Virus record (IMG/VR): IMGVR_UViG_3300042879_003054
Direction: 5' to 3' (one strand)
DNA from: a virus
DNA length: 64,000 nucleotides
In this document: piece by piece, positions 39,728-54,795 of the stretch
Layout: each line of letters starts with the position of its first letter
Position numbering within the stretch: position 1 is the stretch's first letter
Made by a program: the position numbers and the translations under genes
The notes under the pieces: model-generated
Database searches by the model: none
The model's input: only the letters and a program-made list of their open reading frames with translations
Told to the model about the DNA's origin: nothing

Positions 39728-39778
39728 ATTCCAATCCTATAAATAAATTTCAAAATATTTTACTTATTTATACTAGTT

Positions 39779-46086: not shown

Positions 46087-46148
46087 CTTTTTAGACTGTT
46101 TTTAGTTATTTATAAAAAAATAGGAGGGGCAATGCCCCTCCTATCAAT

Positions 46149-46728: not shown

Positions 46729-47907
46729 TTAGAGTTTAAATCCACTAAAAGAATCTTTTGTAATATCCTGCTTAATGCCACCAACCACATAAGATTCTAC
46801 TTCCGTTTCCTGTGGAGCAACTTGAAGTCCCTTAGAGGAAATCCAATGTTCAGTCCAAGGAAGTGGATTATTCTTTGCAGAAATATCATAGAGTGGTTTG
46901 AGTCCAATTGCCTTCATTCTACGGTTTGCAATCCATTCAACATAACTCCAAAGAAGTTTGTCGTTTAGACCAATCATAGAACCATCTTTGAACAGATACT
47001 CTGCCCACCTCTTTTCCTCATTTACACAATTCTCAAAGGCACCTCTTACCCATTCCTCTTCTTCTTTAGCAATTTGTTGCATTTCTGAATCATCCCCTTC
47101 ACGCCACTTATTGAGGATGTTTTGAGTAATAACAAGGTGCTGATTTTCGTCTCTTGCGATGAGAGAGATAATTTTAGCGGATCCTTCCATAAGTTTGAGT
47201 TCACCAAACGCAAAACTGCAAGCGAACGAGACATAAAACCTGATACCTTCGAGAATGTTGACATTGGCAATTGCCCTATAAAGTTTTCTCTTTAATTCAA
47301 TTCTACTTTCTTTTGCATATCCAGCACCCTCTTGTGCAAAAATCCAATCATTAGATGTTCCATATTGTTGTGCAGAATTAATAAAATCATCATAAGCTCC
47401 TGTGACTGAGGATGCTCTTTCTAAAATTTTATCATTATTCAAGATGGAATCAAATACTTCAGAGGGGTCTGGATAAACATTCTTAATGATGTAAGTATAA
47501 GAACGACTATGAATCATTTCCATAAATTCCCACACAGTCATACAAGCTTCCAATTCAGGAAGAGAGCAATAAGGAATAAATGCCATTCCAGGACCACGAC
47601 CCTGAACTGAATCTAAAAGAATTTGATATTTTAAATTAGAAGTAAAGATGTGCTTTTGTTCTGGACGAAGAGTTTGATAATCAGCACGATCCTTCTGTAA
47701 AGAAACTTCTTCTGGTCTCCAGAAATATCCCAACTGTTGTTGAGTTAATTTATCAAAGACTGGATACTTATATGAATCGTACCTTTGAACTCCAAGTGGA
47801 GATCCAAAAAACATTGGTTGTTTTTTGGAGTCTACGTAAGAAGTATTAAATACTGTCATTCCCTGTATTTCTTTTTTTGAATTAACTCTAAATTTTACAA
47901 CTGTCAC
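46729..47907 (-). CDS. nrdB: ribonucleotide reductase class Ia beta subunit
   Basis: FWRPEEV, LLDSVQ, E.IHSRSY, LEGIRFY.SF, RDE..H, VAPQE. Confidence 0.97.
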   Translation of the reverse strand: MTVVKFRVNSKKEIQGMTVFNTSYVDSKKQPMFFGSPLGVQRYDSYKYPVFDKLTQQQLGYFWRPEEVSLQKDRADYQTLRPEQKHIFTSNLKYQILLDSVQGRGPGMAFIPYCSLPELEACMTVWEFMEMIHSRSYTYIIKNVYPDPSEVFDSILNNDKILERASSVTGAYDDFINSAQQYGTSNDWIFAQEGAGYAKESRIELKRKLYRAIANVNILEGIRFYVSFACSFAFGELKLMEGSAKIISLIARDENQHLVITQNILNKWREGDDSEMQQIAKEEEEWVRGAFENCVNEEKRWAEYLFKDGSMIGLNDKLLWSYVEWIANRRMKAIGLKPLYDISAKNNPLPWTEHWISSKGLQVAPQETEVESYVVGGIKQDITKDSFSGFKL

Positions 47908-48985
47908 AATCTTCTTCTCCTTTTAAACTTAAAATTTCCTCAATTAAATCATTAACACCTTTAGATGATTCTTTAATTTCATCAGTCTTATTATCATATG
48001 TATTTTGATAATAAGATGTTTTCCAACCATACTTATATGTATTAAGAAGGTCTTGTGCCATCACTGACACAGGAACTTCATTATTTTCATAATTCTCTGG
48101 ATTATAGGACCAGTTTCCAGAAATTGCTTGATCAAAGAATTTCTGCATAACTGCAACAATATTAATATACCCAATATTGTTAGGCATATCCCACAAAAGC
48201 GTATAGTTATTTTTAAGAGTTCCATACTGGGGAACAATTTGTTTAAGTGGTCCCTTTTTACTTTTTTTAACTGACAAGAATCCCCTGGGTGGTTCAATTC
48301 CATTTGTTGCATTTGACACAACGGAACTGCTCTCCGATGGCATTTGTGCGGACAATGTTGAATGTCGTAAACCATATGCCTGAATGTTGGCACGTAAAGT
48401 TTCCCAATCATGTTGATATGGAATGGAGGAAAGTTCGTCTACATCTTTCTTGTAGGTGTCAATTGGAAGAATTCCCTGTGAATATTTAGTTTTGTTAAAA
48501 TATTTACATGCCCCTTTCTCTTTAGCAATTTGGTTAGATGACTTCAAAAGAAAATATTGGAATGATTCAGAAAGACCATGAACAGCATCCCATGCCTCCT
48601 GTGAGTCATACTTATACCCAAGTTTAGCAAGATAGTGTGCAAGACCAATAAAACCTATTCCAAGAGACCTACGTGCCTTGGTTGAGATCTCTGCTGCTTC
48701 AACTGGATAGTTTTGATAATCAATCAGTTCCTCCAGTCCTCTAACTGAAAGATCACAAAGTTCTTCAAACTCTTCATCAGATTTTACTTTACCTACATTA
48801 ATTGCAGAAAGAATACACAAAGCAATTTCACCTTCAGGATCATCAATGTGTTGCAGAGGAGCAGTAGGAAGTGTAATTTCCTGACAATTATGGACCAGAA
48901 TATCATTTGCGAAGAAGTTATGTGTTCCTTCTACAGTAATATCATAGACTGGGATTTCTTCTTCAAGATATTCAATCTTTAGCAT
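47888..48985 (-). CDS. nrdA: IntC of split intein plus C-terminal half of RNR alpha subunit
   Basis: MLKIEYLEEEIPVYDITVEGTHNFFANDILVHN|CQEITLP; KTSYY; C-terminal CDSC. Confidence 0.93.
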   Translation of the reverse strand: MLKIEYLEEEIPVYDITVEGTHNFFANDILVHNCQEITLPTAPLQHIDDPEGEIALCILSAINVGKVKSDEEFEELCDLSVRGLEELIDYQNYPVEAAEISTKARRSLGIGFIGLAHYLAKLGYKYDSQEAWDAVHGLSESFQYFLLKSSNQIAKEKGACKYFNKTKYSQGILPIDTYKKDVDELSSIPYQHDWETLRANIQAYGLRHSTLSAQMPSESSSVVSNATNGIEPPRGFLSVKKSKKGPLKQIVPQYGTLKNNYTLLWDMPNNIGYINIVAVMQKFFDQAISGNWSYNPENYENNEVPVSVMAQDLLNTYKYGWKTSYYQNTYDNKTDEIKESSKGVNDLIEEILSLKGEEDCDSCKI

Positions 48986-49650
48986 TTTTTTCTCCTGTTT
49001 TGTTCTAAAAGTTGTTTAGCAAGTGTTCTTTGAGTTTCGTCTCTATAATAAGGATTATACACCAATCCAGTTTGTTCTTCAATAGATTTATAAAAGTTTT
49101 TATGTTTCCCACCAAATCTATTTTTAGAAAAATGTTTTGGAAACTTAATATTCAATTCATTAATAGCAAACTCAACTATTCTTTGTCTTCCACCAATAAA
49201 TCCATATTTTTTAGCAAACTTTACACCTACTTCTATAAGTTCCTCATCAGTGTATCCAGAATAGTTTGGATTATTATAACCAGTAGTTCTTATGGAAATA
49301 CCATTTCTCCACTCTTCCTGAACCTCCTGTGAGCATCTTGGAAGCATCCATCCACCAGTTCCTCCTGAAGTGGCATTATAACCTTTAGTATCACTTTCAA
49401 AGAGTTTAATGAAGTGAGTTTCCTTTTCATTAATAAAGTTTTCATCTTCAGTTTGGTAAGTTTCAATCACAGATAAGTCCCAACAATTTTCCCCATATTT
49501 TCTAATAGAAGAATGAAATCTAAATTTAGAACCATTTCTTGCTGATGATAAATGACGATTCCAACGATGTTCTAATGAGTATTCAGTTTTTCCTATGTAA
49601 GATTTTCCGTTATTTTTATTGGTAATTTTATAAACAATATATGTTTTCAT
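48979..49650 (-). mobile_element. GIY-YIG homing endonuclease between the split nrdA halves
   Basis: YIVYKITN..NGKSYIGKT...R...H, E, GYN..GG. Confidence 0.9.
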
Positions 49651-49651
49651 T

Positions 49652-49705
49652 ATAGGAAGTGTAATCTCATAACTATTTATAAGATATGGAAATTACACTT
49701 CCTAT
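49652..49705 (-). promoter_or_regulatory. late promoter inside a 14-bp inverted repeat
   Basis: ATAGGAAGTGTAAT...TATAAATA...ATTACACTTCCTAT. Confidence 0.85.
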
Positions 49706-49709
49706 CATA

Positions 49710-51425
49710 TTAGTTGATTACCAATTCATCAGTTTCGGTTAGGTCTTTTGCCATCACATACCCACGATTTTTTGTGAATACTTTATGTTCTGGTGTAACT
49801 ACGATACTCTTACCACTTTCTTCATCAGTAATTTTCATTACCTTTGCTTTTGGTGATGTTTCGGCAAATGCTGTAATAGGTGCCCATTCTTGTTGATTAG
49901 TTTCTGTATTATAAGAAAGAACTTCTATTTGAGGAACATCCTCACAAGGATCATTATCACTTACTTTATAAGACATAACTCCAATTTCTCTGGAACTAAT
50001 ATATTCATCCAGATCTCCAATCTCAATTTCTTCTTCATAAACTTTCCAATCATAAATCTCTCCAATATCATCATATATTGCTTTTGGGTATTTGATTTTA
50101 ATCTTTGTATCACCAGCAACACAAAGATTACTCATCTCAACCTTATCCATGAAGGAAGAGTGAGAATTACAATGATCGATATTCATAATGTAAATACGAC
50201 CAGTTTCTGCACGTTCCTTCAGGAGGTCCAGAAAGAGTTCTTGAGCACCGATAGTTTTTCTTGGAATAGACTCATCTCGTTCATAACGAACATATAACTC
50301 GTCAAATCTATCAGTGCCAAAAGCATCATACAAACCAGGAACAGAGTGCGGAGAGAAGAGTGAGATCTCTTCGTTGCGGATGAATCGTTCATAGAACAGT
50401 TTGCTAATTTGGATACTGTAGTCTAACTTGCGAACACGATTATCTTCGGTTCCTTTGTTATTTTTTAATACAAGAATATCCTCTATTTCTTGATGCCAGA
50501 TAGGAAAGTGGACTGTAGCAGAACCACCTCTGATGCCGTTTTGTGTACAGCATCGCACAGTTGCTTCAAACTTTTTAAGGAAGGGGACCACACCTGTGTG
50601 TTGTACCTCTCCACCTCTAATTTTACTGTTGATGCCACGGATTCGACCTGCGTTGATGCCGATTCCCGCCCTTTGTGCAACATATCTGCCGATAGCCATA
50701 TCAGAACTAAAGATGCTATCGAGGGTGTCATCAACATCAACAAGCACACAGCTAGCAAATTGTCGAAGTGGAGTTCGCACTCCCGCCATGATAGGTGTGG
50801 GAATGTTGATTTTATGTTTGGAGATTGCGTTGTAGTATCTTTTGACATATTCCAATCTAATTTCTTTTGGGTACTCTGCAAAAATAGTCAAAGCAATCAT
50901 AATGTACATAAATTGAGGAGTTTCATAAACTTTTCCAGAACTCCTATCTTGCACCAAATATTTATCAATCACTTGCCTGAGACCTGCATAAGTAAAAAGC
51001 ATATCTCTTTCGTGATCAATAAAATGATTTACTTTATCAATTTCTTCTTTAGAATACTTTGTTAGTATTTGACTATCATAGATGTCTTTACTTGTACAAG
51101 TGATAATGTGATCATATAGATCAGAAGTACAACTAATACCACCATATAAACTTTTTCTTAGAGAAAACAAAAGCAATCTTGCTGCAACATATTGATAATT
51201 TGGATGTTCCAAATCAATCAAATCAGATGCACTACGAATAAGAATCTCTTGAATTTCTGCAGTTGTAATTCCATCATAGAACTGAATTCCAGATTGCATT
51301 TCAACTTGAGATGCAGAAACCCCTGCAAGATTTTTACAAGATTCTTCTACCATTAAATGCATTTTATCAAGATCAAGTGACTCAATAGAACCATTTCTTT
51401 TTTTAACTTTTAATCCGTTGCTCAT
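49710..51425 (-). CDS. nrdA: N-terminal half of RNR alpha subunit plus IntN of split intein
   Basis: ATP cone VKKRNG, PTP.MAG, FASCV, QNGIRGG, SNL|CVAGDT...TPEH; start probably MSNG. Confidence 0.95.
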   Translation of the reverse strand: MSNGLKVKKRNGSIESLDLDKMHLMVEESCKNLAGVSASQVEMQSGIQFYDGITTAEIQEILIRSASDLIDLEHPNYQYVAARLLLFSLRKSLYGGISCTSDLYDHIITCTSKDIYDSQILTKYSKEEIDKVNHFIDHERDMLFTYAGLRQVIDKYLVQDRSSGKVYETPQFMYIMIALTIFAEYPKEIRLEYVKRYYNAISKHKINIPTPIMAGVRTPLRQFASCVLVDVDDTLDSIFSSDMAIGRYVAQRAGIGINAGRIRGINSKIRGGEVQHTGVVPFLKKFEATVRCCTQNGIRGGSATVHFPIWHQEIEDILVLKNNKGTEDNRVRKLDYSIQISKLFYERFIRNEEISLFSPHSVPGLYDAFGTDRFDELYVRYERDESIPRKTIGAQELFLDLLKERAETGRIYIMNIDHCNSHSSFMDKVEMSNLCVAGDTKIKIKYPKAIYDDIGEIYDWKVYEEEIEIGDLDEYISSREIGVMSYKVSDNDPCEDVPQIEVLSYNTETNQQEWAPITAFAETSPKAKVMKITDEESGKSIVVTPEHKVFTKNRGYVMAKDLTETDELVIN

Positions 51426-52426
51426 ACTCGTTTCCAACTAATAAGTTTTGCTTTTGCTTCTAAACCAGAATATCTGTTTGATTTTAACATACTATTAACG
51501 TCAAGTCCAGAGAGAACCATATCATTAATATCCTTTTCATTGACATTTGATGGCCATATCACAATAGATAATTTGAGGTCTATTGCTTTTTCCATTCTTT
51601 CCACAATTTGTTTATTTCTCTTTTCATTATCATAAACAATTACAAAATCAACATTAAAATTACTTATTAAAAACATCTTATCAATATCAGCACCAACCAT
51701 AGCAATAGCATTATCAATAAACATACTATCAATTGGACCCTCTGTGATATAAACAGTTTTGTTCCAATCTACATTATCAAGACCATAAATCTTTGGTTGA
51801 TTTTCATCTAAAATAATTGTAATGTATTTAATTTTAGAATTTTTATTTAAACTACGACCTTGAAACCCTATGATTTCCCTATTGTTTATGAGAGGAATGA
51901 TGATTCTTGGTTCATCTTGATCTATAGATTCAAAAGTATATTTTTGCTCATTTGTCCATTTCTTAAAATTCTCACAATAATATAATTGATTTAAGAATTT
52001 ATCTGGAATTTTTCTATCCTGTAAATAGACTTTTGCTGGATGCTCAGTATTTAGTTCTGCTATAGTTGGTAGATTTATCTTATGTTTTTTTTCAAAAACA
52101 GTTTTTTCAAATTGAAAATTTGGATTTGGAGTGTTGGAATTTTTGCCCGTAATACCACTCTTATACCTTTCCATCACATACTGATCGTATAAGACAACAT
52201 CAAAATCTTTTAAAAAATTTGTGAATGTTCTTGAAATCCCACAATTATGACACTTATAATTATGGTCATTTTTTAATTTATAAATGTATCCTCTTGCTTT
52301 ACTTTTGTGTCGTTGAGAATCTCCGCAATAAGGACATCTAAAATTATAAAGACCAGTTTTTACTTGTTTAAATTTTTGCAATCTGGAAGAAACAAGTCCA
52401 ACATATTTGGAATCAATTAAACTCAT
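51422..52426 (-). CDS. DNA primase (gp61)
   Basis: FRCPYCGDS...CHNC, GFQGR, EGPIDS, DNE, KDINDM. Confidence 0.95.
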   Translation of the reverse strand: MSLIDSKYVGLVSSRLQKFKQVKTGLYNFRCPYCGDSQRHKSKARGYIYKLKNDHNYKCHNCGISRTFTNFLKDFDVVLYDQYVMERYKSGITGKNSNTPNPNFQFEKTVFEKKHKINLPTIAELNTEHPAKVYLQDRKIPDKFLNQLYYCENFKKWTNEQKYTFESIDQDEPRIIIPLINNREIIGFQGRSLNKNSKIKYITIILDENQPKIYGLDNVDWNKTVYITEGPIDSMFIDNAIAMVGADIDKMFLISNFNVDFVIVYDNEKRNKQIVERMEKAIDLKLSIVIWPSNVNEKDINDMVLSGLDVNSMLKSNRYSGLEAKAKLISWKRV

Positions 52427-54358: not shown

Positions 54359-54795
54359 GTCTTTTTTTCCGTAAGTTTCTTTATAATGATATTTATAAAA
54401 AAAGAAGACCTTTATTTTTTGTCTTCTTTGCGTAAAATTATTTTTAAAAAGTTAGTAGTTAAATCTAGTAATCCATTTTCTTCAAATTTTTTTGTTTTTG
54501 CTAACCACTCAGATGCAGTCAACAATAAACCTAAAATAATAGTTACTCCCCAATTTGTTATAAAACAAGTTATCATTTTTGTGGAGTAAAGAGTTTTTCT
54601 TTAACTAACACAACAACCATATCATCAATTGTGTTATCGGTTGTTTTTACATATTTCTCAAGAAGTTCAATTACAAGTTTCTTAACTTCTGGATGTGTAG
54701 CAATTTGAAGAATGAGTGGTTTTACCAATGCAACTACTACTCCCATAATCCCCTCTTATTAGGTTCAATTTTATTTATCTCAAACTAGTCATCAA

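Follow-up and report, generated by a model that had tools for sequence, protein, structure and literature searches.

A hairpin with a late promoter in its loop precedes a homing endonuclease gene in IMG/VR virus record IMGVR_UViG_3300042879_003054, and we regard it as probably a temporal RNA lock on that gene in the style of phage T4, of the I-TevI and mobE type. The stretch analysed here (the window) comprises 64,000 nucleotides of this record and is part of a T4-like cyanomyovirus. The element lies within a "fractured" reductase gene, nrdA, in which three overlapping or adjacent minus-strand open reading frames (ORFs) hold, in order, the N-extein with the N-terminal half of a split intein (IntN), a free-standing GIY-YIG homing endonuclease gene (HEG), and the C-terminal intein half (IntC) with the C-extein. 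Both the late-promoter hairpin and this type of locus have already been published, and the hairpin reading, right as it is, is known for such loci. What the window adds is a well-preserved example on a long cyanophage contig, together with comparative evidence that the design outlasts the sequence of its arms.

The hairpin and its late promoter

An earlier note on this DNA, made from the letters alone, had placed a late promoter between perfect 14-bp inverted arms, and every position holds (Table 1). The promoter is a T4-type motif, TATAAATA. A repeat search lengthens the two arms to 20 nt at 90% identity, with one mismatch and one G-U pair in the RNA. The 3' arm covers the 18 nt upstream of the HEG start together with the A and U of the AUG itself (start codon 49650-49648), and the loop, which contains the motif, measures 20 nt, with 5 nt between motif and 3' arm. 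Folded as minus-strand RNA, positions 49630-49725 reach -29.2 kcal/mol (z = -6.3), and none of 200 shuffled sequences was as stable. By the promoter-to-start spacing of T4 late transcription, a late transcript is predicted to begin at about 49668-49667, at the first bases of the 3' arm, with the 5' arm present only on read-through RNA; the leader taken from this predicted start folds at only -2.1 kcal/mol.

The promoter motif is frequent in the window, with 14 copies, 13 of them on the minus (coding) strand and most shortly upstream of start codons. Cyanomyoviruses possess g55, g33 and g45 and use NATAAATA as a late promoter, according to the portions of the published work available. Other minus-strand copies of TATAAATA in the window (46107-46114, 54390-54397, 39765-39772 and others) follow G+C-rich terminator-like hairpins and lie 25-45 nt before start codons, the typical spacing of late genes; none of them sits in a comparable hairpin loop.

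From this anatomy we infer read-through, a translational block and a late transcription start. The nrdA locus would be transcribed as a single message running from the N-extein and IntN through HEG to IntC and the C-extein; in favour of read-through, a scan for terminator-like sites on the minus strand across 47800-51600 found none. On this read-through RNA the arms would form a stem of about 20 bp that takes in the HEG start codon and the 18 nt upstream of it; with its start hidden in this way, the endonuclease would go untranslated. Late in infection, the late-transcription machinery of the phage would start at TATAAATA in the loop and yield a transcript without the 5' arm; since that leader would be unstructured, the endonuclease could then be made. 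The downstream frame for IntC and the C-terminal part of NrdA would start from its own AGGAG, and because this site lies inside the end of HEG, the reductase half could be made while the endonuclease is locked. A translation-blocking hairpin was among the roles offered in the earlier note, and it draws support from the anatomy and from a design conserved over 24 leader types with differing arms, as set out below.

Several observations weigh against such a lock. Its late leader has no Shine-Dalgarno sequence. The IntN stop codon lies a few bases before the stem, so ribosomes terminating on IntN would reach the outer stem and may partly open it. The minimum-energy fold of an 871-nt stretch (48850-49720) pairs the 5' arm with the C-extein and not with the 3' arm. 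Among the 38 window-type leaders taken alone, two-sided covariation is absent and the covariation score equals that of shuffles. Four metatranscriptomes hold contigs over HEG and the hairpin, and one such contig, identical to the window, spans 49655-49805; contigs of this kind show no starts, ends or strand, cannot reveal where transcription begins, and may come from DNA.

The closest published counterparts are the fractured genes of Dassa et al. 2009 (PMC2677866), whose text describes seven cyanophage-like NrdA loci (NrdA-1 to NrdA-7) split at this point, some with GIY-YIG genes. For the fractured loci as a whole, it reports hairpins before 15 of 16 endonuclease genes, 10 of them with TATAAATA, and conserved motifs that form the stems. 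The window shares with those loci a cyanophage-type nrdA split directly before the catalytic Cys, a free-standing GIY-YIG gene between the halves, an endonuclease end that overlaps the IntC start, and a hairpin before the endonuclease start, often with TATAAATA. Those loci were described from short read assemblies; the window, by contrast, is one long T4-like cyanophage contig.

Hairpins of this kind also guard endonucleases outside inteins, and e and soc belong to the same T4-type class. In the portions of the literature available, a hairpin in the start region of long early transcripts is described for I-TevI, I-TevII, I-TevIII, segB and mobE of Aeromonas phage Aeh1, with the late promoter placed so as to keep the hairpin off late transcripts. 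I-TevI of the T4 td intron is, like the enzyme here, a GIY-YIG endonuclease with a start-hiding hairpin on early and middle transcripts, a late promoter that bypasses it, and a homing-site-like sequence at that promoter (PMC2988022, in the parts that treat it). It differs in that its host is an intron and not a split intein; in that its leader has a Shine-Dalgarno site, which the window leader lacks; and in that its operator is a single site overlapping the promoter, with binding proven, whereas here two inverted copies form a stem and the operator is putative (PMC2988022). As described in the parts of PMC2988022 and PMC2677866 that cover it, mobE is likewise a free-standing endonuclease gene that splits nrdA into two genes of one operon, with a late promoter and a hairpin sequestering the ribosome binding site. 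Unlike the window's enzyme, however, it belongs to the HNH family and comes without an intein, the two NrdA pieces assembling without splicing, and those parts describe no likeness between stem and target (PMC2988022, PMC2677866).

Conservation of the design among relatives

The NrdA-type split intein with its endonuclease is widespread, close relatives of the enzyme occurring on more than 90 viral contigs. When viral contigs were scanned with it, 94 relatives were confirmed, 80 of which (72-100% identity) were kept, and the same stem, loop and promoter stand before the gene in all 77 related viral loci for which the HEG start was fetched (L024 is truncated inside the element). Searched for by pattern, the hairpin itself turned up only in this family, always within a reductase. 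In a conservation profile of 48 distinct 1.4-kb segments, a single block with about 90% nucleotide identity stands out as recently spread; it extends from the last IntN block through the hairpin, HEG and IntC, with extein identity outside it dropping to 0.7 and then to 0.3-0.5. Conservation of the arms, at 0.91-0.92, is no higher than that of the adjacent HEG coding sequence. Because the whole mobile element is about 90% identical and the arms are no better kept than the neighbouring coding sequence, their constancy within the window-type group carries little weight.

Divergent lineages came from a profile search of 1.8 billion proteins, which returned full-length HEG relatives at 36-53% identity; an alignment of these was then used to scan viral and metagenome contigs for more. 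In a tblastn search against cultured phages no close relative was found, the best match being 35-46% identical over part of the protein. The comparison of lineages by eye used 44 of the 80 metagenome loci, chosen on inspection because they did not seem to repeat viral contigs. The 24 leader types come from a scan of all loci with a pattern built on the start of the endonuclease and the end of IntC; loci without 75 nt upstream or without an extein were dropped, and L201, which the pattern missed, was added by hand.

Across 41 distinct aligned leaders TATAAATA is invariant, and 93% of stem cells are paired. One stem position appears as A-U, as G-C (L278) and as U-A (L242), along with uncompensated intermediates, and L325 holds two further paired changes. 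For these 41 leaders the covariation score is 0.060, against 0.053 ± 0.002 for shuffles, a value that 2 of 500 shuffles attained. In L201 the stem is perfect over 17 bp and differs from the window type at five positions on both sides; this stem is related and the IntN block of L201 similar, but its HEG is only about 42% identical. Among the 24 leader types, ATAAATA is present in 21, an ungapped stem of at least 9 pairs encloses the motif in 15, and the three types that lack it form hairpins all the same (-16.6 to -33 kcal/mol). One candidate for a compensated change, in L058, was rejected; it has one G-U and one A-C. Judged by these comparisons, the hairpin design, in which a stem covers the start region and the loop contains the late promoter, outlives the sequence of the arms, and a design kept despite arm turnover is what selection on RNA pairing predicts.

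The placement of the start codon varies slightly. In two divergent lineages, one with L334 and L339 and the other with L329 and L330, the 3' arm ends in the ATG of HEG, and all three bases of the start codon are paired in the stem.

All divergent lineages with readable flanks (L201-L358) carry the split intein in a reductase at the same site, with HN followed by C-x-E-I, and the exteins at that site read EITLP, EIDLP, EIALP, EIYLA, EIILP, EICLT or EIFLF. On this evidence from sequence, the endonuclease family seems tied to this one insertion point. Two pattern scans found no endonuclease-free or contiguous version of this intein; the patterns were narrow, and their result is hence not evidence of absence.

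Likeness of the arms to the nrdA extein

The earlier note had also reported that 49688-49704 is the exact 17-nt reverse complement of 48865-48881, the (Q)EITLP(T) codons of the C-extein, and this is confirmed to the base, the two sites lying 806 nt apart. Allowing at most one mismatch, the 17-mer occurs at only these two sites in the 64 kb, where 0.00 occurrences are expected (100 shuffles); so far beyond shuffles, chance is rejected as the cause. Read in the minus-strand frame, Cys+1 occupies 48886-48884, Gln 48883-48881, EITLP 48880-48866 and Thr 48865-48863. The other arm had been described as reading EITLP right up to the start codon. The sequence GAG ATT ACA CTT CCT is there (49668-49654), but it ends three bases short of the ATG, because an ATA intervenes. 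As a direct copy, the similarity covers 25 nt at 84% (21/25), between 48865-48889 and 49653-49677; its upstream extension into the promoter is too short and too AT-rich to tell whether it originated from an intein-containing junction. Against the resident extein flank in the window, the 3' arm matches at 15 of 16 positions; with natural intein-less alleles it shares 10-16 of 17, and with L199 it shares 16/17.

We found no published statement that the stem copies the extein flank in the literature searched, which did not extend to supplements, including the motifs of Supplementary Figure S4 of Dassa et al. The text of that paper, as far as searched and that figure aside, does not describe such a copy, and the terms "target site" and "homing site" have 0 occurrences in it (PMC2677866). 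The likeness is a real and new detail of these loci.

What does the likeness mean? The answer is uncertain, and probably it is one of inheritance: we treat the EITLP likeness as probably a trait of the mobile cassette, carried over from an origin beside the insertion site and not kept in step with the current host gene. It is the commonest lineage that shows the likeness most strongly; a few others (L349, L329, L334) also show it and in several it is gone, a distribution that looks like decay from a single origin and not like maintenance. In the model of Loizos and Belfort, endonucleases are said to invade at target-like sites. Should the likeness be a fossil, it preserves a trace of the way in which the cassette with the endonuclease came into the intein.

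The behaviour of the arms in relatives bears directly on this. The earlier note had raised co-variation of the arms with nrdA codons in related phages, and none appeared: the arms stay constant beside exteins that read EITLP, EITEP, EICEP or EVTLP. Synonymous differences are found in the resident C-extein, and in some hosts its protein sequence differs as well (EITEP, EICEP, EITIP, EVTLP). Over the 24 leader types, the summed match of leaders to their own exteins was 352, against 354 ± 15 for the exteins of other lineages (p = 0.56), and the best match fell at the leader's own junction in only 2 of 24. Comparison by eye had given the impression that the L277, L329, L334 and L348 types copy their own extein; the permutation and the position test together rejected it. 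When the arms are read as EITLP codons, most of their variants fall on the first or second base and are non-synonymous, and the compensated ones read EITHP or EITPP.

These results make it rather unlikely, in our judgement, that the arms serve as a double operator, a role that would be compatible with the hairpin. The endonuclease would bind the two inverted EITLP copies on either side of its late promoter and, in the manner of I-TevI, act as repressor of its own gene, because a DNA-binding domain that recognises the EITLP-coding part of the homing site would also bind the arms. The precedent is close: in the published account, as far as available, the I-TevI operator has 15 of 20 nt in common with the homing site, overlaps the late promoter and has no well-placed cleavage motif. 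The match of the 3' arm to the resident flank and to intein-less alleles would suit such binding, as would a 17-mer far beyond chance, an arm that reads EITLP in frame, and the position of both arms within about 40 bp of the promoter motif; against it, the arms stay fixed while the extein varies from host to host, leaders match other lineages' exteins as well as their own, arm variants lie mostly at non-synonymous positions, and the HEG coding sequence alongside is conserved just as well as the arms. The C-terminal half of the enzyme, moreover, matches no recognised DNA-binding family. We are equally doubtful of the broader proposal that the arms are a palindromic pair of homing-site mimics, in which one 16-nt module, taken from the nrdA codons at the intein site, would act both as a DNA double operator and as the RNA stem that blocks translation, and would point to the recognition sequence of the enzyme. 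If the likeness does reflect binding by the endonuclease, it would predict the recognition site and would carry autorepression of the I-TevI style over from introns to split inteins.

We think it quite improbable that the palindrome matters at the DNA level, whether as a recombination joint for the exchange of endonuclease cassettes between inteins or as a leftover of fold-back repair beside the EITLP codons with no present function. Conservation does start exactly at the 5' arm, with IntN tails just upstream differing; the copied sequence adjoins the insertion site; and L201 combines a related stem and a similar IntN block with a distant endonuclease. However, hairpins that enclose the promoter are found even where the stem sequence is quite different, a pattern that speaks for selection on pairing and not for a fossil, and the narrow pattern scans mentioned above yielded no endonuclease-free allele for comparison.

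Hardly any credence attaches to the long-range duplex of the earlier note, in which the 5' arm would pair over 17 bp with the C-extein codons 806 nt downstream and loop out HEG and IntC, joining the nrdA halves or, in a variant added here, freeing the 3' arm: judged within the window alone, it is thermodynamically competitive (-26.9 kcal/mol, against -24.6 for arm with arm, and chosen by the minimum-energy fold of 48850-49720), but it is not a conserved feature, because only 2 of 53 distinct loci keep a complement of at least 16/17 (the window with 17, L004 with 16), while 28 of the 53 have a longest perfect run of at most 7 nt, and extein synonymous changes come without a matching change in the arm. 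The local hairpin would also form first during transcription, and the extein partner would lie in sequence under translation.

Locus layout and gene identities

A nucleotide search with the nrdA region gave 353 matching cyanophage records, all without the 1.25-kb insert; cultured cyanophages have nrdA without it. The intein junction reads ...SNL / C...HN / CQEI, with the insertion directly before the catalytic Cys, and in 76 of the 80 nearest relatives the sequence at the insertion point runs uninterrupted as ...SNL-CQEITLP.... The GIY-YIG gene and the split intein before the catalytic Cys, both named in the earlier note, are borne out by the ORFs and their Pfam matches, and we take the predicted identities to be correct. 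The ORFs of HEG (stop codon 48981-48979) and IntC (start codon 48985-48983) overlap by 7 nt, a type of overlap known from fractured genes. The C-terminal 123 residues of the endonuclease are conserved in full-length relatives (36-50% identity), although they have no Pfam match and fall in no recognised DNA-binding family. Rfam gave no match within 47800-51500.

Table 1. Positions of the hairpin, its promoter and the surrounding nrdA features in the window
Feature	Position	Strand	Basis and remarks
5' arm of hairpin (perfect core 49692-49705)	49689..49708	-	Repeat search, RNA fold; 49688-49704 complementary to C-extein mRNA 48865-48881
3' arm of hairpin (perfect core 49652-49665)	49649..49668	-	Direct, EITLP-reading copy of the C-extein flank
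TATAAATA, T4-type late-promoter motif in hairpin loop	49674..49681	-	Motif scan; predicted start about 49668-49667
C-extein flank copied in both arms, last base of Gln codon to first base of Thr codon	48865..48881	-	Repeat search
nrdA N-extein (ATP-cone, all-alpha domain, first part of barrel; ends ...EMSNL)	50124..51437	-	ORF 49710-51437; Pfam PF03477, PF00317, PF02867
IntN, N-terminal split-intein half, 137 aa, CVAGDTK...ELVIN	49710..50123	-	Pfam Intein_splicing, residues 504-573; Cys codon starts at 50123; stop codon 49712-49710
HEG, predicted free-standing GIY-YIG homing endonuclease gene, 223 aa	48979..49650	-	Pfam PF01541, residues 4-92, E = 9e-13; PHROG homing-endonuclease families match
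AGGAG, Shine-Dalgarno-like site for the IntC/nrdA-C frame, within HEG 3' end	48992..48996	-	Sequence
IntC, C-terminal split-intein half, 33 aa, MLKIEYLEEE...ILVHN	48887..48985	-	Pfam Intein_splicing, residues 3-33
nrdA C-extein, first residue the catalytic Cys (CQEITLPT...)	47888..48886	-	Pfam PF02867, residues 33-326; ORF 47888-48985

The intein itself varies in ways of its own. The middle of IntN (about 49930-50050, minus strand) is a mosaic in the 48 aligned segments, with at least three unrelated alternatives, for example ...VLSYNTETNQQEW, ...SRDIDTGNQEIDYH and ...HSFDENFFSMQ, and there nucleotide identity is about 0.3, beside blocks of about 0.9. The IntN tail after ...TDEL differs widely among L001-L080 (VIN, MVLGI, NII, a 26-aa extension and others); despite this variation the stem always follows the IntN stop codon after only a few bases, and it is at the 5' arm that the nucleotide sequence becomes conserved. 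An 11-codon ORF, MIGSVISISYK (49709-49674, minus strand), starts 1 nt past the IntN stop, crosses the 5' arm and reaches into the promoter motif; relatives have their own versions of this ORF, and it is probably incidental.

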